From contig RDOA01000012.1 of NCBI GenBank assembly GCA_011364925.1, positions 18,254-82,253 on the forward strand: a stretch of 64,000 nucleotides of DNA, given 5' to 3'. The notes below the pieces were generated by a model. The model made no database searches and was not told the DNA's origin. It worked only from the letters and a program-made list of their open reading frames with translations. Below, piece by piece: positions 5,438 to 14,471 of this stretch. The DNA comes from Promethearchaeota archaeon (lineage in GTDB: Archaea; Asgardarchaeota; Lokiarchaeia; Sigyniarchaeales; SOKP01). A program made the translations under genes and the position numbers. Position 1 is the first letter of the stretch. Every line of letters starts with the position of its first letter.

Positions 5438-5839
5438 ATGGATTTTGACGAGGAATTTGATAAGGAGTTCGACGAAGAATTGGAGGAGGATTTTGACGAA
5501 AACTTAGATGAAGATTTTGACGAACCTACTTCAAAAACTCCTCCTGACGATGTTAAAGTTAAGACTCCAGAACCTCATCTCCCTCCTGAAGGAAAAAAGA
5601 TATCTGTATTTTTTCTTTCTACTATTGGTCCGGGAGAAAAAAAACAAAAATTACTAGTATATACTGGTAATAAAGTTGGAGACATTAAAGATACTGTGGC
5701 AAATTTGTTTGCGCTAGATCCATCCGATTTCCATTTGTCTTCAGGAGGAGTGACAATGGATGAGACATCTTACCTAAGCGATTATAATGTAGATGAAGGA
5801 GATGACATATTATTAATTCCTGCTAGCGTAGCAGGTTGA
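5438..5839 (+). CDS. ubiquitin-like protein with acidic N-terminal extension, ending in an exposed Gly (Ubl-A)
   Basis: beta-grasp pattern (VGDIKDTV...GVTMDETSYLSDYNVDEGDDILLI) ending PASVAG-stop; about 70% identical to the 7692..8024 domain. Confidence 0.85.
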   Translation: MDFDEEFDKEFDEELEEDFDENLDEDFDEPTSKTPPDDVKVKTPEPHLPPEGKKISVFFLSTIGPGEKKQKLLVYTGNKVGDIKDTVANLFALDPSDFHLSSGGVTMDETSYLSDYNVDEGDDILLIPASVAG

Positions 5840-5880: not shown

Positions 5881-6669
5881 CTATTTTTTTCTCGATGGTA
5901 TTAACGCGATCTCGTCATCGTCGTCAATAGAATAATCCCTTATCTGCTTTGATTCGTCTAACAATATCCCACCGGTGGATAGGAGAAAATCTTCTAAAGC
6001 ATAATCAAATAGAATTCCGACTTGTTCCTTGAGGATATTTACTAATTCTGAAGTTTCAATAACGATTATTTTGGTTTTCTCGCCAGGTTCGACTAATGAT
6101 CTTACATAAACGCGAATCTTATCATCCATTCCAATAGTGGTCAGTGGTGGGTTGTACTGCACTTTTTCATTAGTTCTTTCCTTATATTGCAAGATATCTT
6201 TAATTAACCGTTTTCTTTCGCTAGGTTCAAAATATAGCATTTCTCTGATAAAAAAGATTTTATCCATCTTTGATAACCCTAGCAAATCAATTTTGTCTAA
6301 TTCTTCTCTATTGAACAATGTAAAAATGTAATCGTCGAAGGTCTCAATTTTTTCAAAAGTTTCATCGCTATCTGCATATTGATCTACTAATGGCATAGCT
6401 TCGAAGTAATCTTCGATTAGTTCGCTTGTAGTTCTATGTATTGGATTTAACTTTTTAGCGTATTTATCTTTTTTTATCTTTTTAGCGGGACTACCCGTAG
6501 AAGATACAACGGTATAGATCGTGCCCGTTGACAATACCGCAACGCTCCCAACAGTTAGAAAGAGGAATAGAGGTAAACTTTCTATCTGCATTAAGAAAAA
6601 AATCAAATAGAGTATTGCAAAAACAATGTAAAGAGTTAAAATACTTAGAATTCTAAATTTTTTTTTCAT
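5881..6669 (-). CDS. membrane-anchored protein with C-terminal ubiquitin-like domain lacking terminal Gly
   Basis: two N-terminal hydrophobic helices; C-terminal PGEK...LSTGGILLDESKQIRDYSIDDDDEIALIPSRKK aligns to the two Ubls. Confidence 0.8.
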   Translation of the reverse strand: MKKKFRILSILTLYIVFAILYLIFFLMQIESLPLFLFLTVGSVAVLSTGTIYTVVSSTGSPAKKIKKDKYAKKLNPIHRTTSELIEDYFEAMPLVDQYADSDETFEKIETFDDYIFTLFNREELDKIDLLGLSKMDKIFFIREMLYFEPSERKRLIKDILQYKERTNEKVQYNPPLTTIGMDDKIRVYVRSLVEPGEKTKIIVIETSELVNILKEQVGILFDYALEDFLLSTGGILLDESKQIRDYSIDDDDEIALIPSRKK

Positions 6670-6747: not shown

Positions 6748-7422
6748 TTATATATCATAAGGAACTGATTTTCTAATATTCTCATATCTCTTGGAGTCTA
6801 ATTTATATAAATCTCTTTTTTTATCTTTTTCAATTGATATTAATTTTAAATTCATTAAAATTTCAAGATATTTTTTAATTGTATTGTAATTACCTTTTAG
6901 GATAGAAGCTATTTCAGTAATTTTCAAAGAATTATCTTCACTCTTTAATAGATTTATAATCTCACGAACGATTTCTTGCTTTAAATAATAATATATCTCG
7001 TCTAAATCTGGATCTGAATCGTAATCAAAAATAATTCTTTGATTCTCTATTTTCTTCGACCGTGTAAATCTGAACTTTTCTAAACATGATAAATGCCATA
7101 ACGCTTGATTACTTCCAATATTTATTGCTTTCATTATTTCATTTACATTGGATGGAGTCTTTCGGATATAATTATAAATTTCATTTCGGATTGGATGTTC
7201 AATAATGTTATTTTTCATTAATCTAGTTCCAGGGATTAGAATTCTTTTTTTAATAAGGTTTTTAATAAAGATTTCGATACTATTTCTGTTCAATTCAGGA
7301 TTAGCTCTTACCCTATTATTGATGAACACCACGATATCTTCGACAGAAAAGAACGGTTTCTTTTTTAAATATTCCTCTATTAGACCACAGACAATAGATT
7401 GAAGGCTATCAGGCTTGCTCAT
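6748..7422 (-). CDS. winged helix-turn-helix transcriptional regulator (tandem wHTH, ArsR-like)
   Basis: IRNEIYNYI...WHLSCLEK and ITEIASIL..NYNTIKKYLEIL HTH motifs; divergent from the Ubl-E1-E2 operon. Confidence 0.75.
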   Translation of the reverse strand: MSKPDSLQSIVCGLIEEYLKKKPFFSVEDIVVFINNRVRANPELNRNSIEIFIKNLIKKRILIPGTRLMKNNIIEHPIRNEIYNYIRKTPSNVNEIMKAINIGSNQALWHLSCLEKFRFTRSKKIENQRIIFDYDSDPDLDEIYYYLKQEIVREIINLLKSEDNSLKITEIASILKGNYNTIKKYLEILMNLKLISIEKDKKRDLYKLDSKRYENIRKSVPYDI

Positions 7423-7691
7423 AAGCTTATTGTTTTAATGTGTTGAATTATACGATTTTTATAATCAAATCTTCTCTCTAAAAGGATATTTTTCAATTTA
7501 TATATATTGATAAACAATCATTTAATTTATAAGTATATTAAACTAGGCATTTTAATCTTAATGAATACATTTTTTACATATAACTTAAAAATCTTCAAAA
7601 TCATTCCAATCGGTTTTTTAACTCAATATTTTCACCATTAATATAAGTCTAAAAAAAAACTTAAACTAAAAAAACCAAGGAAGCGATTTGA

Positions 7692-8024
7692 ATGAGTTTT
7701 GAAGAAGATTTTGATGAGGAATTAGAACCAGTTAAATCTAAAACCCCATCAAGTAAAACACCCTCAACAGGTAAGAAGTTGACTTTATATTTTATGTCAA
7801 CTATTGGTCCTGGTGAAAAGAAGGAGAAGTTAACTGTCAATGATGCAAATCGGGTAAGTGATATTAAACAGACATTAGGAAATCTATTCGGTCTTGATCC
7901 AGATGAATTTCACTTATCATCTGGAGGTGTTACAATGGATGAGAATAGTCAATTAAAAGATTATAATGTCAATGACGGCGACGACATTCTTTTGATTCCA
8001 GCAAGTACTGCGGGATTAAATTAA
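7692..8024 (+). CDS. ubiquitin-like protein precursor with acidic N-terminal tail (Ubl-B)
   Basis: beta-grasp pattern ending IPASTAG-LN; first gene of the Ubl-E1-E2-JAB-RING run. Confidence 0.88.
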   Translation: MSFEEDFDEELEPVKSKTPSSKTPSTGKKLTLYFMSTIGPGEKKEKLTVNDANRVSDIKQTLGNLFGLDPDEFHLSSGGVTMDENSQLKDYNVNDGDDILLIPASTAGLN

Positions 8025-8103: not shown

Positions 8104-9339
8104 ATGGTGATAATATTGCATAAGGATTCAGATTTTTTTGCAAAGGGATTGTCAGAAGAAGAGAGAGACTTATACGATCGTCAATTTCGTTTAGAAGGAT
8201 GGTCCCAAAAATTAGTAAAAAAATCGAGAGTTTTAATCGCGGGAGTAGGAGGGTTAGGATGTGAAATTGCTAAGAATTTAGCTATGTTAGGGGTAGGCCA
8301 TATAGATCTCGTGGATCTAGATATCATCGAACACTCTAACTTAAACCGCCAAGTTCTGTTTGCAGGCGCAAAGCTGGGAGAACCGAAAGCAATTGCGGCT
8401 GCAAAAAAGTTAGCTGAAATTAATCCTAATATTATTGTTAATGGATACCATTCATCGTTAGAACGATTAGAGCCCTCTCTCTACTATAATGCTGATGTTG
8501 TTATAGGGGGACTTGATTCAATGAATGCGAGATTAAATTTAAACGCTCAATGTATTAGATTTAGGAAACCATTAGTAGATGGAGGGGTTTCTGGCTATTA
8601 TGGACATGTATATACAATATTCCCATATCGGAATGCATGTTATGAATGCAATCCGCTGCCAGATGTGGCAAGTGATGAAATGGCAGCTTGTACCGTAGTT
8701 GGTATCCCTCGAAAAAGAATTCATTGCGTTTTTAAAGGAGATATGGCCTTCAAAGAAAAATTTGATAGAGATCCGAATCCTAAAAATGTAGAAGAGATAA
8801 GGTTTATTCAAAAAGTTGCAAATGAACTTGTTACAAAACACAATTTCTTTCCTGAATATACAGAAGATGATATTGTAAAAATTATTGATCGCCATGATCC
8901 AGGAATTATAACAATAAACGCAACAATATCAGCTTTACAATCTCACGAAGCGATTAAAATCCTTCATTGGAAAAACGGTCATAAAGGATTAGGTGAACCA
9001 ATTATAAATTATATGATATTTAATGCTATGACAATGAAATTATACCACATTGAAAAGAAGAGAAATCCAGAATGTTCTCAATGTGGTAAAAATGTGAGAC
9101 GCGTTGTAATTAAAATGAGAGAAAACTCTCCATGCATGAATATAATTAAAATATTACAAAAAAATGGATACAAATTAGAATCGGAATTTGAACCAGTATT
9201 AACTCTTTTGGATTTTAACGATATAATTGTTCTAGATTTAGAGCAAAATCCAATTCAAAATGGTTTGAGGATTTACGAATTTCTCACGGTTGCGGGGTTT
9301 GAAGGAGGAGAAATATACGTAACCTTAAAATTTAAATAA
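8104..9339 (+). CDS. ubiquitin-activating enzyme E1 (ThiF family, UBA3/SAE2-like)
   Basis: YDRQ, GVGGLGCE, D..E.SNLNRQ, CYEC, catalytic ACTVVGIPRKRIHC, CSQC, C-terminal extension. Confidence 0.92.
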   Translation: MVIILHKDSDFFAKGLSEEERDLYDRQFRLEGWSQKLVKKSRVLIAGVGGLGCEIAKNLAMLGVGHIDLVDLDIIEHSNLNRQVLFAGAKLGEPKAIAAAKKLAEINPNIIVNGYHSSLERLEPSLYYNADVVIGGLDSMNARLNLNAQCIRFRKPLVDGGVSGYYGHVYTIFPYRNACYECNPLPDVASDEMAACTVVGIPRKRIHCVFKGDMAFKEKFDRDPNPKNVEEIRFIQKVANELVTKHNFFPEYTEDDIVKIIDRHDPGIITINATISALQSHEAIKILHWKNGHKGLGEPIINYMIFNAMTMKLYHIEKKRNPECSQCGKNVRRVVIKMRENSPCMNIIKILQKNGYKLESEFEPVLTLLDFNDIIVLDLEQNPIQNGLRIYEFLTVAGFEGGEIYVTLKFK

Positions 9340-9405
9340 ATAATTTATCCAAAATATAAATCTAATAAAAAATTATAAAAAAAAACAAAAAACGGGGTTA
9401 AAGAT

Positions 9406-9933
9406 ATGAGTATAAGAAGTAGTCGAGTCTCTCGAGATTTTGCGGGACTTAAAAGATTGCTAAAGGAAGGTACCATCATCCAATTAAAGCCATTTAATCC
9501 AAAAAAAAAGAGTATTGATCACTTAGCTTTAACGGTTAAAGGTCCTAAAGGAACAGCTTACGCAGGAGGATTGTTCAGATTGGAAATGAAGTTTCCTGTT
9601 CAGTACCCTAAACAACCTCCTTTTGTGAGATTGCACACTCCTATTTGGCATCCAAATTTTTGGCCAAAACCTAATGAATATAAAGGACAAAGAAATATTT
9701 GCTTAGCGTTAGTAGATCCGTCTCTAGTGGGGACAAAAGGTGGATGGAGCCCTTCGAAAACAGCTGTTACAGTTGTTCAAGCAATCATTGCTATGCTCAA
9801 CACGCGAGGTAAGTATGTCAATCCAACTGATGTGTTTAATAAAAAAGCAGCGATAGAAATGATAAAGGATCCTAAAATGTTTGAAAAGAAAGTGAAAAGC
9901 TTAACTAAGAAATACGCTAAGGATAAATGGTGA
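9406..9933 (+). CDS. ubiquitin-conjugating enzyme E2
   Basis: GPKGTAYAGGLF, FPVQYPKQPP, IWHPN, ICL (catalytic Cys), WSP. Confidence 0.95.
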   Translation: MSIRSSRVSRDFAGLKRLLKEGTIIQLKPFNPKKKSIDHLALTVKGPKGTAYAGGLFRLEMKFPVQYPKQPPFVRLHTPIWHPNFWPKPNEYKGQRNICLALVDPSLVGTKGGWSPSKTAVTVVQAIIAMLNTRGKYVNPTDVFNKKAAIEMIKDPKMFEKKVKSLTKKYAKDKW

Positions 9934-9940
9934 TTATGGA

Positions 9941-10750
9941 ATGGGCATTGACGAAAATAATTCTAGTTCCATTAGAGATGCGATAAAACAGAGAATTAAA
10001 GAGAAAATTAAAAAAGAACTCCTCGAAGAAGTGTACACTGAATTACAATTAGAAGAATTACAAGAAGAAATAACCGCTGAATTTATCGATGTAAAACCGA
10101 TAAATCACTCTAAATATATCAAAGCTAACCTTGAACCAATTCCAATGGAACCCGTAGTAGAAACTGTGGCTAGAAGCGATAAAATTGAAGCGACTATAAC
10201 AATCACGATAAAAGCAGTTCTTAAAATCGCCAGTCATTCTCTCAAATATGCGCATTCAAAAATACCTAGAGAACAATGGGTAGAAGTAATTGGCTTACTC
10301 GCTGGAAAGTATAATGAGTCTAACGGAATATTACATATTGAAGATGCTTATCCAATGGGGCATGGTACAGCGGTGTATGCTGAAATAAAGGATTATAAGA
10401 ATTATGTTAGAGCTTTTAAAGATATCAAGAAAAAAAAGGGCTTATTCATAGCAGGATGGTATCATAGCCACCCAAGTTATAGTTGCTTTATGTCAAGGGA
10501 AGATTTAAGCACACAGGCTAGATATCAAAAGCTTTGGGACAAAGCCGTTGCACTCGTAATCGATCCATTTTTAATTAACGGAAGATCAGTTGGATTTGAA
10601 ATTTACCGCGCAAATTTTAAAACAAAGAAATGGTTTTCAGTGCCTTTTGAAATTAAAGGGCATTTAGATATTCGCATGTTACCGGAGATTATAGAATTCA
10701 TGAATCCGATAATAGAAGGGAAACCAGCCTATTTAGAATATGATGAGTAA
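9941..10750 (+). CDS. JAB1/MPN+ (JAMM) metalloprotease, CSN5/Rpn11-like
   Basis: EVIGLL and GWYHSHPSYSCFMSREDLSTQ, ALVIDP. Confidence 0.93.
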   Translation: MGIDENNSSSIRDAIKQRIKEKIKKELLEEVYTELQLEELQEEITAEFIDVKPINHSKYIKANLEPIPMEPVVETVARSDKIEATITITIKAVLKIASHSLKYAHSKIPREQWVEVIGLLAGKYNESNGILHIEDAYPMGHGTAVYAEIKDYKNYVRAFKDIKKKKGLFIAGWYHSHPSYSCFMSREDLSTQARYQKLWDKAVALVIDPFLINGRSVGFEIYRANFKTKKWFSVPFEIKGHLDIRMLPEIIEFMNPIIEGKPAYLEYDE

Positions 10751-10782
10751 AGAAAATAAGTTAATATTGTGATGTTTAAACC

Positions 10783-11904
10783 ATGGTTAAAAATAAAACC
10801 TTAACAATCATTTTTGCTATTTTTTTAGTTATTGGGGTAATTCATGGTTTAATCTCTCTTTCTTTTTTAAATTTTGCAACCTGGGTTTTAATAGGATTAT
10901 GGGTAATATTTACAATAAAATTATATGTAAACATAAAACGGCACCGTGAGTTTAATTCGCCACATAATACTGCATTTTTTGTCATTATTCCGTTAACTAT
11001 TGGAATATTTTACTCAATTTGGGGCTATTATACAGGAATTCTAGGAGAAAATTTACTCGGTGGAGTATATTTTAGTCTATGGAGCTTAATTTTTGCTTTT
11101 CCTTTTGTGATCTATGGATCCTACTCATTATATCGATGTTTCAAGAAATACAATGTAATATATTTTGGGACCAAAGCTGTGAAAGCCCGAAAATTGGGAT
11201 ACATTCTTTCTTTTTCAGTTCTTATTTTTATTTTGATTTATTGGATAAGTTTTTATAGCGCAATTGAGAGTTTTCCGTTGGATTTGAATCTCTTAATACT
11301 ATTTATAGCTACAATTTTAGTCGTAATAATATTTGGTTTTACTAATTCTCGTCCATCATTACCTACTTTAACACGCGATTATATTGCAAATCGTACTAGA
11401 ACAATAAACAATTTAACTACGCCTACAACACAACGACAGCGTTTACGGACTACAAGAGTAACCGCTCCTACTCCATCTACTAGAGCAACAACACAAACTT
11501 CAAGATCGAGAACTCATTCGTCAAGAATAACCCCTACATCACATAGACAAACTACAAGAACTAAAACAACAAAAGTTACACACACAACTACTGTTAAACC
11601 TACTTCCAAAATTCGGAATATTAATAATTATAAACCCAGAGCATCGTATTTGTCATTAGAAGATTTTAAGTGTATCTTTTGTTTTAAGCTACCAAAACTT
11701 CCTGATGACAAGGGTCGAGGAGTGGTTATATGTCCAAATTGCAGATATCCCTCCCATGCGGATGAATTCAAAGATTGGATGCGCACTTCAAATCTTTGTT
11801 CGCGTTGTAGTGCTCCTATTCCTACCAGCTTTAGGCGTAATCCCAGTATAGTAAGTGTAAAGAACTACATTATTGCTTATAAACAATTGTTAAAACGCAA
11901 ATAA
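10783..11904 (+). CDS. multi-pass membrane protein with C-terminal RING-variant domain (putative E3 ligase)
   Basis: about 6 hydrophobic helices, Thr/Arg/Ser-rich linker, C-x2-C-x16-C-x2-C-x4-H-x2-E-x3-W-x6-C-x2-C. Confidence 0.75.
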   Translation: MVKNKTLTIIFAIFLVIGVIHGLISLSFLNFATWVLIGLWVIFTIKLYVNIKRHREFNSPHNTAFFVIIPLTIGIFYSIWGYYTGILGENLLGGVYFSLWSLIFAFPFVIYGSYSLYRCFKKYNVIYFGTKAVKARKLGYILSFSVLIFILIYWISFYSAIESFPLDLNLLILFIATILVVIIFGFTNSRPSLPTLTRDYIANRTRTINNLTTPTTQRQRLRTTRVTAPTPSTRATTQTSRSRTHSSRITPTSHRQTTRTKTTKVTHTTTVKPTSKIRNINNYKPRASYLSLEDFKCIFCFKLPKLPDDKGRGVVICPNCRYPSHADEFKDWMRTSNLCSRCSAPIPTSFRRNPSIVSVKNYIIAYKQLLKRK

Positions 11905-12640: not shown

Positions 12641-13813
12641 ATGTCCAAAACCTTCATACATAGTAATTACGGTTTGATTGGAGTCGGCTTAGAATTTAAA
12701 AAGAACATCACAGTCGAAGTTAATGAAGATGGAATAATTAATAATCTTTCTTATGATGATGTAAGAGAAGATATCAATATTTCGTCGAAACATCCTACTT
12801 TTTTATTAATACCTGGTTTGATTAATTCTCATATTCATATTTGTGACAGTTTTGCTAAAGAACAAGGTTTTAATAAAAATTTAATAGAAGTTGTCGCCCC
12901 TCCTAATGGGATTAAACATAAATTGCTAGAAAATACTTCAGAAGCGATCAAAGTACAAGGAATAAAAGAAGCAGTTAAGGATATGTTAGCTAATGGCATA
13001 ACTCTGTTCGTAGATTTTAGAGAAAATGGAATAATTGGCGTTAACATATTAAAAGATGCTTTAGAAAATTCACCAATTAATTGCATTATTTTAGGAAGAT
13101 TCAAAAATCTTGAAGAAGCAGAGGTTATTATAAAAAAAGCTAATGGAATTGGATTTGCAAGTTATGATCAGCTTTCTCAAGATCATAAAAATATAATAAT
13201 TGGATTAAAAAATAAATATAGAAGCAAGATTATTGCTTGTCACGATGCAGAGTTATCACGGAACGAGTTACTATTGAAGGATATAATAAGAGATGGAATA
13301 ATTGATGTTGTTATTCACGGGACGCACTATACGATGGAAGATTTAAAAAAGATTAAGGAAAACCATATAATGTTAGTTTTATGCCCAAGATGTAATGGTT
13401 ATTTTGGGTGTGGTTTTCCACCTATTAAGGAATTATGCTATCTAGAAATCCCTGTTAGTCTTGGAACAGATAATGTAATGGCAAATAACATTGATTTATT
13501 TGAAGAGATGCGTTATTTATATAGGATTTTCCGTGTATTGGCTGCTAATAAAAGTAAGAATATTTTAACATCAAAAGAGCTGTTAAAAATGGTAACTATT
13601 AATGCTGCAAAAAACTTTGGTCTGTTAGAGAAATTTGGTTCTATTTCAGTGGGAAAATATGCGGATTTTTCTCTATTAAGCCTTTCTGATTCAAATTATT
13701 ATTCACATGAGTTTGATAGTGAAAATATTTATAACATAATTGTTCAAAGAACAAGGGCAGAGAATATAAAAAGGACTTATATTAAAGGTGAGGTAGTATC
13801 TGAAAGAAAGTGA
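12641..13813 (+). CDS. metal-dependent amidohydrolase / deaminase family protein
   Basis: PGLINSHIHICD, CPR.N, LGTDN, T.NAAK, GSISVGKYAD; ATG at 12641 preferred over GTG 12632. Confidence 0.85.
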   Translation: MSKTFIHSNYGLIGVGLEFKKNITVEVNEDGIINNLSYDDVREDINISSKHPTFLLIPGLINSHIHICDSFAKEQGFNKNLIEVVAPPNGIKHKLLENTSEAIKVQGIKEAVKDMLANGITLFVDFRENGIIGVNILKDALENSPINCIILGRFKNLEEAEVIIKKANGIGFASYDQLSQDHKNIIIGLKNKYRSKIIACHDAELSRNELLLKDIIRDGIIDVVIHGTHYTMEDLKKIKENHIMLVLCPRCNGYFGCGFPPIKELCYLEIPVSLGTDNVMANNIDLFEEMRYLYRIFRVLAANKSKNILTSKELLKMVTINAAKNFGLLEKFGSISVGKYADFSLLSLSDSNYYSHEFDSENIYNIIVQRTRAENIKRTYIKGEVVSERK

Positions 13814-14471
13814 ACATCCTTATGTGATTTTAAGTGCTGCTATGACAATTGATGGAAAAATTGCATCAAAAAATGGAGATCCAGAAATTTCTGATGAAGA
13901 GGATTGGAAATCTGTTCATAAACTTCGAACAGAGGTGGATGCGATTATGGTTGGTAAAGGATCCATACTGAAAGATAATCCCAAATTACATATAAAATAT
14001 TACGATCATAACGGGTACTATCGTATTGTATTGGATAGCAATCTTTCCATTCCAATTGATTCGAATATTATTACCTATGAACCCGATACTTATCCAACTA
14101 TTATAGTAACAACCGAAAACGCTCCTGTTGATCGAATTAGGGAATTTGAAGCAAAAAATGTAATTATTATTAAGTCTGGAAGTGGGAATGAAGTTGATAT
14201 TGTTAAATTGATGCCCATTTTATACGGAAAAGGCATAAAGAGGATCCTTTTAGAAGGTGGGGCCAGATTAAATTGGAGTTTTATCAAAAATCATTTAGTA
14301 GACGAAATTAGAATCACAATAGGACCCTGGATGGTAGGGGGTAAGGATGCCTTGAGTTTAGTGGAAGGAGAGGGTTTCGCAAAAATGTGTGAAAGCCCAA
14401 GATATTGCTTATCAAATGTGAAGAAGAACAATAACTATATAACTCTTTATTATAAGAAAGAAAAACCATGA
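13800..14471 (+). CDS. arfC: 2,5-diamino-6-ribosylamino-4(3H)-pyrimidinone 5'-phosphate reductase (RibD C-terminal family)
   Basis: HPYVILSAAMTIDGKIA, HKLR..DAIMVG, LLEGGA; start placed at CTG 13800 behind GGTGAGG (ORF track begins at GTG 13824). Confidence 0.85.
   Translation: MKESEHPYVILSAAMTIDGKIASKNGDPEISDEEDWKSVHKLRTEVDAIMVGKGSILKDNPKLHIKYYDHNGYYRIVLDSNLSIPIDSNIITYEPDTYPTIIVTTENAPVDRIREFEAKNVIIIKSGSGNEVDIVKLMPILYGKGIKRILLEGGARLNWSFIKNHLVDEIRITIGPWMVGGKDALSLVEGEGFAKMCESPRYCLSNVKKNNNYITLYYKKEKP

Follow-up and report, generated by a model that had tools for sequence, protein, structure and literature searches.

What is a membrane protein with a built-in ubiquitin-like (Ubl) domain doing beside an archaeal protein-tagging system? 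Work on Asgard ubiquitin loci treats them as forerunners of the eukaryotic system, and to our knowledge the components described in them to date are limited to modifier, E1, E2, RING and JAMM. The locus considered here lies in a 64,000-nt stretch of contig RDOA01000012.1 from a Promethearchaeota archaeon (the whole stretch is hereafter the window). An open reading frame on the minus strand (5881-6669) encodes a 262-residue protein, P0001, and no description of this protein was found in literature searches. The main new result, drawn from sequence comparison, is that the helical domain of P0001 is the tail of a receptor family with a winged-helix (wHTH) partner, located inside a ubiquitin-like locus. 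P0001 most likely helps to set the expression of the locus or its activity at the membrane, and does not serve as a tag. The features on which this reading is built are collected in Table 1.

Table 1. Features of the P0001 locus and of related loci. Positions refer to the window unless another locus is named.
Feature	Position	Strand	Basis
P0001, whole gene: TM hairpin, tail (putative docking) domain and predicted non-conjugatable Ubl	5881..6669	-	ORF, translation, homologues, synteny
TM helix 1, ~residues 7-27, preceded by MKKKFR	6589..6651	-	hydropathy, AF2
TM helix 2, ~residues 33-55, homologous to the lone TM anchor of the receptor-family proteins	6505..6573	-	hydropathy, similarity
Lys-rich juxtamembrane linker, residues 56-80, net charge +7	6430..6504	-	charge count; predicted disordered
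Tail (putative docking) domain, ~residues 81-166	6172..6429	-	conserved block in homologue alignment
Predicted beta-grasp Ubl domain, residues 184-258	5896..6120	-	paralogy, AF2, Foldseek, VIA
C-terminal SRKK and stop, Gly-free, predicted not E1-activatable	5881..5895	-	homologue C-termini
Triple winged-helix protein (ArsR/HTH_24-like), module partner; co-directional with P0001 and upstream of it, 78-nt gap	6748..7422	-	Pfam, PDB profiles
Conserved intergenic block, core CTTCAAAATCATTCCAA at 7593-7609; candidate operator	7587..7619	+	13-region alignment
Free Ubl1, pro-form ending AG-LN; leads the divergent operon	7692..8024	+	Pfam, alignment, BLASTP
Free Ubl2, ending VAG; convergent with the P0001 gene	5438..5839	+	Pfam, alignment, BLASTP
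E1 (ThiF), E2 (UQ_con, 9406-9933), JAMM (9941-10750) and multi-TM RING-like protein (10783-11904)	8104..11904	+	Pfam, tblastn synteny
Fused receptor-wHTH examples in other loci	L046 4695-7652, L044 4747-8070, L045 188-3304, L050 4778-9421	- (all)	

The membrane hairpin and its ubiquitin-like domain

Hydropathy analysis located two transmembrane (TM) segments in P0001, at residues 7-25 and 34-52, the first with a value of 2.73. An AF2 model built from a 53-row alignment placed helices at both (residues 2-26, pLDDT 72-87, and residues 32-45); a single-sequence model reached only pLDDT 44 and was discarded. Net charge is +4 ahead of the first TM helix, 0 in the loop of 6-7 residues and +8 behind the second helix. 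By the positive-inside rule, P0001 would therefore be a membrane hairpin whose two ends are cytoplasmic, a topology that makes all residues beyond 55, and with them the Ubl domain, cytoplasmic. The Lys-rich linker was modelled at pLDDT 25-35, and three helices were predicted in the middle region (residues 121-128, 134-144 and 149-162, pLDDT 72-81). Conservation across the homologue alignment is strong in each of the three parts, hairpin, middle domain and Ubl.

Residues 184-259 of P0001 align without gaps with both free Ubls of the locus, and BLASTP returned 37% identity with Ubl1 (7692-8024, E 9e-19) and 39% with Ubl2 (5438-5839, E 8e-17). Invariant in the alignment of the three are P195-G196-E197-K198, F228/L230/S231/G233/G234/D238 and D245-Y246...D252/I254/L256-I257-P258. 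In the AF2 model, residues 184-258 (pLDDT 80-91) follow the order beta-beta-alpha-beta-beta-310-beta, and Foldseek matched ubiquitin, ISG15 and Caldiarchaeum ubiquitin (6fno_D) with a TM(target) of 0.8-0.94 and an rmsd of 1.0-2.1 Å. VIA-align, which is independent of Foldseek, superposed 73-77 residues on ubiquitin and ISG15 (Z 12-14.4, rmsd 1.2-1.5 Å). The Pfam ubiquitin-family profile PF00240 scored 20.4 bits (E 4.4e-4) on P0001, below its gathering cut-off of 25.4 bits; Ubl1 clears the cut-off with 30.1 bits, and some homologues of P0001 (P0111, P0115-P0119) have a precomputed PF00240 match. Because the Pfam score is below threshold, the Ubl assignment is carried by fold and paralogy. The xKTP motif is absent from the P0001 sequence.

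P0001 ends in IPSRKK, Ubl2 in VAG and Ubl1 in AG-LN. The sequence xIP followed by a short basic tail free of Gly (SRKK, SRNK, SRKEKD and similar) closes 122 of 125 homologues, whereas AG, or AG plus a short propeptide of a few residues, closes the free Ubls from these loci. Judged by position in the last strand, the P0001 chain ends ahead of the residue that aligns with the free Ubls' terminal Gly. Activation by E1 requires the carboxylate of a C-terminal Gly, so conjugation of P0001 would be excluded and its Ubl is predicted not to be conjugatable. The first-pass annotation had described a protein tethered to the membrane by two TM helices and carrying a non-conjugatable paralogue of the local Ubl family, recognised by the motifs given above, with a beta-grasp fold to be expected in the model; all of this agrees with the present results.

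Searches returned 421 homologues of P0001 at E<=1e-3, and the best 120 of the 421 are 57-100% identical to it and nearly all full-length, a resemblance that by these values is far above chance. All homologues are unannotated or 'hypothetical', and the named sources are Lokiarchaeota/Promethearchaeota metagenome bins. A few are filed under Hermodarchaeota or under a bacterial bin (Nanopelagicaceae); these records are probably Lokiarchaeial contigs that were mis-binned. Full-length sequences fall into about eight clusters at 50% identity, and among 301 genomes of the phylum full-length matches are confined to the family of P0001 itself, in the genera designated g1, g2, g6 and g7.

A tree of the Ubl domains placed 12 tethered Ubls in a single clade (100/100), on a long branch relative to 19 free Ubls, which fits a single fusion, after which the domain changed rapidly and later came under constraint. 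Twelve positions (192-194, 199, 201, 219, 223, 225, 229, 243, 255 and 260) are fixed in the tethered and in the free Ubls, each group with its own residue. The beta1-beta2 loop and beta3 form the usual recognition face of ubiquitin, and several of the differing positions, placed by strand position, would fall there. K198 and K214 are invariant across both groups. The tethered Ubl is a strongly diverged, recent paralogue of the local modifier.

The tail domain and its winged-helix partner

A single-sequence search matched residues 34-172 of P0001 to membrane proteins of the NosD/beta-helix, Laminin_G_3 and beta-propeller types, in which an ectodomain is followed by one TM helix and, at the extreme C-terminus, by the tail domain, sometimes present twice. 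Members of this receptor family are laid out as signal peptide, large ectodomain, TM helix, Lys-rich linker and tail. The similarity of P0001 to other architectures begins at residue 33-36, and its anchor, linker and tail match the family with E 5e-4. By homology, then, the second TM helix, the Lys-rich linker and the helical tail of P0001 are derived from a Lokiarchaeial family of single-pass receptors. P0001 has no large extracellular domain, only the 6-7-residue loop between its two TM helices; members with small ectodomains (~190-220 aa) occur among the pairs of tail and wHTH genes. On these comparisons P0001 is the receptor module minus its ectodomain, with a diverged Ubl fused behind the tail. 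The middle region had been noted at first simply as a helical stretch; its helical nature is upheld by AF2, and the idea of a generic spacer gives way to the cytoplasmic tail of a receptor family, coupled to a wHTH protein and sometimes fused to it.

The core motif of the tail domain is EEL.KIDLL.LS..DK..FIREML.F...ER..LI..IL. A profile of the domain, run on 41 genomes of the family, gave between 0 and 18 copies per genome; most lie in open frames 500-2500 codons long. The domain matched no Pfam family, nothing better than E 0.4 among PDB sequences and nothing usable in the ESM-Atlas; the Foldseek and VIA lists for the P0001 model were filled by matches to the Ubl domain. The fold predicted for the tail is of only moderate confidence. 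A comparison of its last helix with MIM-type elements was unconvincing and was dropped.

The protein encoded at 6748-7422 matched Pfam HTH_5 (E 1.8e-7), and its PDB profile matches are archaeal wHTH regulators. Its winged-helix relatives in Pfam, PDB profiles and Atlas clusters are solely DNA-binding proteins of the ArsR/HTH_24/Lrs14/Sso10a type; an ESCRT-II-like reading was rejected on that account, and by family resemblance the protein is predicted to bind DNA. In the genome that carries P0001 there are just two tail proteins and just two full-length members of this wHTH family, adjacent pair by pair. The other tail protein (460 aa) consists of signal peptide, ectodomain, TM helix and tail, and the 3' end of its gene is overlapped by the gene of a 223-aa triple wHTH protein that is 31% identical to the 6748-7422 protein (E 2e-29).

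The pairing extends well beyond this genome. Pairs of tail and wHTH genes were found in nine further genomes of seven genera, and a wHTH gene is adjacent at all 13 tethered-Ubl loci with enough flank. In the stretches fetched from two genomes, G270 and G030, a wHTH gene lies on the same strand within 600 nt of 16 of the 24 tail ORFs, and a further 4 of the 24 are fused to the wHTH part in one ORF. The fused ORFs (Table 1) run through ectodomain, TM helix, Lys-rich linker, tail, about 20 residues and three winged helices; the tail core of P0001 is 50% identical to that of a fused receptor-wHTH protein over 36 aa (E 1e-5). The existence of these relatives argues that tail and wHTH work as one unit. 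Most pairs have the order tail protein then wHTH, and the P0001 locus has the opposite order. Taken together, the receptor-regulator family is large, Lokiarchaeial, present in up to 18 copies per genome, lacking in some genera (e.g., g4) and apparently undescribed.

Several metagenome proteins carry the tail domain in other settings. In P0148, P0173 and P0181 it stands behind a zinc finger with eight Cys/His ligands that has weak RING/B-box-like Pfam matches (E ~0.1), and in P0181 and P0173 finger and tail together stand behind a TM anchor; these proteins are a second tie between the tail domain and ubiquitin-type parts. In P0129 an N-terminal hairpin and the start of the tail run into sequence like sigma-70 region 4, and P0177 joins a truncated J-domain to the tail domain. 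Both chimeras could be assembly artefacts or genuine fusions.

Locus history and the intergenic region

The wHTH gene and P0001 stand head-to-head with the Ubl1-E1-E2-JAMM-RING operon. The co-occurrence with the cascade that the first-pass annotation had proposed as a check is tight: of the ~45 genomes in which P0001 has a homologue, at least 42 carry a free Ubl gene within ~2 kb of it. Comparison with sister genera outlines how the arrangement may have arisen. In g3, g5, g6 and g8 the locus consists of a coiled-coil gene followed by Ubl-E1-E2-JAMM-TM-RING, and missing from these loci are the wHTH gene, the tethered Ubl and any second Ubl next to the coiled-coil gene. In g1, g2 and g7 the wHTH gene, the TM-tail-Ubl gene and a duplicated free Ubl lie between the coiled-coil gene and the operon. 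P0001 and its wHTH partner thus appear to have been inserted as a unit on the promoter side of the operon, a position which argues that the unit concerns the Ubl-E1-E2-JAMM-RING operon. The presence of TM-RING in sister genera that have no P0001 also means that the ligase does not require it.

Two g6 genomes (L062 G207:C6 and L064 G279:C341) have a variant in which the pair stands head-to-head with a free Ubl, which is followed by a RING-only gene. This short gene matches just the RING-like C-terminal part (~255-370) of the TM-RING protein, and no E1, E2 or JAMM gene was found within ~8 kb of these loci. The variant indicates that the tethered-Ubl gene is linked most tightly to the regulator and to a divergently transcribed free Ubl.

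Other Ubl arrangements were seen as well. At L041 (G180:C99), from a genus without the tethered Ubl, free Ubls lie downstream of TM-RING at 12704-12952 and 13766-14140, both ending in TAG plus a short extension. Seven soluble proteins of 270-560 aa (P0142, P0144, P0146, P0150, P0155, P0156 and P0167) have a zinc-ribbon/coiled-coil N-terminus and a C-terminal Ubl ending in TAG; they resemble conjugatable Ubls extended by a large N-terminal part, a class apart from the tethered Ubl.

The conserved block was defined by aligning the intergenic region that separates the wHTH gene from Ubl1 across 13 orthologous loci. The 13 regions have in common TATA-like AT blocks and one block that is not AT, CTTCAAAATCATTCCAA, which sits immediately upstream of the TATA-like element of Ubl1. 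It is exact in four genomes and recognisable in g6 and g7; allowing up to three mismatches, it was not found upstream of the Ubl in four loci without the wHTH gene. Three blocks conserved across genera were seen within 7460-7545 and 7587-7619, namely TCTTCTCTCT near the wHTH start, an AT-rich TATA-like core and CTTCAAAATCATTCCAA. The CTTCAAAATCATTCCAA block is a candidate operator, and it could also be a promoter element particular to the lineage and recognised by some other factor.

Function and comparison with known systems

Our preferred explanation, which we hold tentatively and would put somewhat short of an even chance, is that P0001 and the wHTH protein form a regulatory pair, tethered to the membrane, through which the tagging system is coupled to its own expression, with the Ubl replacing the ectodomain as input or handle. 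It is ranked first on the strength of the tail-wHTH fusions and the insertion on the promoter side. The tail, as the fusion proteins suggest, would dock the winged-helix regulator at the membrane, and the regulator would act on the common divergent promoter region that holds the block at 7587-7619. The tethered Ubl would be a cytosolic input handle, bound or modified by E2/TM-RING, JAMM or Ubl receptors, and possible modes of reading it are binding, extension of a Ubl chain and turnover. Such binding or modification would change the way in which the anchor retains the regulator or switches it on, and expression of the operon would then track the state of the pathway. The adjacency of the wHTH gene can also mean simply that a regulator controls its neighbouring gene. 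A more specific form, which we regard as rather unlikely, is a feedback sensor: the uncleavable Ubl would be treated as a ubiquitin-fusion substrate by E2, RING and degradation, and its turnover or modification would free or activate the wHTH protein and so reset the operon. If true, it would be a prokaryotic counterpart of the ubiquitin-controlled membrane-tethered transcription factors Spt23/Mga2 and Nrf1.

P0001 might instead, in line with the adaptor role proposed in the first-pass annotation, be a scaffold or adaptor of an E3 ligase, a hairpin Ubl protein that binds TM-RING, E2 or both and so arranges or adjusts ligation there, with the wHTH protein merely regulating expression. A TM hairpin carrying a cytosolic Ubl suits such a role, as does the presence of the multi-TM RING-like protein, E2 and JAMM in the same locus in g1, g2 and g7; the homologue stays beside the RING-only gene in g6, and some tail-domain proteins bear the RING/B-box-like zinc finger. 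However, four sister genera have the full TM-RING operon and no P0001, and the part of P0001 outside the Ubl is homologous to the receptor-regulator module and to no known scaffold. The domain order is also opposite to that of HERP/Usa1, which has an N-terminal UBL, and neither Pfam nor PDB searches gave a HERP/Usa1 match. The origin in a receptor tail and the coupling to the wHTH protein point to the regulatory pair over the scaffold, for which we would allow a minor but appreciable chance.

Two further readings assign the Ubl a direct part in the cascade. As a membrane-bound signal or acceptor, it would recruit UEV/ESCRT-I-like proteins, Cdc48 or the proteasome, or prime Ubl chains, and its tail may possibly co-assemble with the tails of surface receptors. 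The tail domain is indeed common to many surface proteins, K198 and K214 are kept in tethered and free Ubls alike, and Lokiarchaeal UEV proteins bind ubiquitin in yeast two-hybrid assays (PMC9192718). Yet self-association of the tail is conjecture, the genome of P0001 offers a single other tail-domain protein and hence few partners for co-assembly, no ESCRT genes are among the annotated neighbours of the locus, and the positions of the recognition patch are unlike those of the free Ubl. We consider this reading improbable. The notion of a decoy or competitive inhibitor, already raised in the first-pass annotation, has lost ground and now seems very unlikely. An unreactive tethered Ubl that is a paralogue of substrates of E1, E2 and JAMM and is missing the reactive end could occupy one of these enzymes and damp the cascade; but a decoy would be expected to keep its enzyme-facing surface, and the tethered Ubls sit on their own long branch with own conserved residues at 12 positions. 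SRKK moreover replaces the C-terminal tail that E1 and JAMM grip, and a 1:1 decoy at the membrane would presumably be an inefficient inhibitor.

Built-in, non-conjugated domain-type Ubls are regarded as typical of eukaryotes. P0001 shows that a domain-type Ubl has arisen in some Lokiarchaeia too; this one is membrane-anchored and coupled at the gene level to a partner resembling a transcription factor. Its occurrence in four genera of one family, together with its recent origin from a local paralogue, points to parallel evolution rather than eukaryote ancestry. It offers a small, concrete case for how archaeal tagging could be controlled or steered to the membrane, and ties the tagging system to an apparently undescribed receptor-regulator family that has expanded in these archaea.

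Among eukaryotic proteins, HERP/HERPUD1 and yeast Usa1 are membrane hairpins with both ends in the cytosol and an N-terminal UBL, and serve as scaffolds for Hrd1. P0001 resembles them in the hairpin, the predicted cytosolic placement of both ends, the non-conjugated UBL and the genetic link to a multi-spanning RING ligase. It differs in that its Ubl is C-terminal and the remaining part comes from a Lokiarchaeia-specific module; no relationship of the HERP/Usa1 type was found among its Pfam or PDB sequence matches. The confinement of full-length forms to four genera of one family argues that the likeness is convergent. The MUBs of plants and animals hold an unconjugated ubiquitin fold at the cytosolic face of the membrane, a likeness to P0001, and are anchored by C-terminal CaaX prenylation. 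P0001 instead has TM helices and ends in SRKK, with no CaaX and no Cys in the last 60 residues.

Spt23/Mga2 and Nrf1 are membrane-tethered eukaryotic factors released via the ubiquitin system. With these factors and with anti-sigma/ECF-sigma pairs, the P0001 locus shares the pairing of a membrane protein with a putative transcription factor, and possibly the tying of factor availability to a ubiquitin or degradation system; none of these is homologous to the P0001 pair, and the comparison is one of analogy only. The ubiquitin operons of Caldiarchaeum subterraneum and of Asgard archaea (PMC5654768, PMC6043591, PMC9192718) have the same set of Ubl, E1, E2, JAMM/Rpn11 and RING; set beside them, the free Ubls of the P0001 locus end in Ala-Gly. 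No mention of a membrane-tethered non-conjugatable Ubl or of an operon-linked wHTH pair was found in term searches of PMC9192718 and the 2023 UEV-Vps23 preprint or in the titles and abstracts returned by literature searches.

The nearest relative is the module of receptor and triple wHTH protein. P0001 has in common with it the homologous TM anchor, Lys-rich linker and tail and the adjacent, co-directional, paralogous wHTH gene. It differs by having no ectodomain, an extra N-terminal TM helix, the fused Ubl and the reversed gene order. The closest published class to this module is that of the transmembrane transcription regulators (TTRs; Demey et al. 2023, PMC10269533), in which a DNA-binding domain and a TM segment are joined in one polypeptide. 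P0001 has no DNA-binding domain, the putative DNA-binding part residing on its own polypeptide, and it therefore falls outside the TTRs as published; its fused relatives, such as that at L046 4695-7652, do combine the two.
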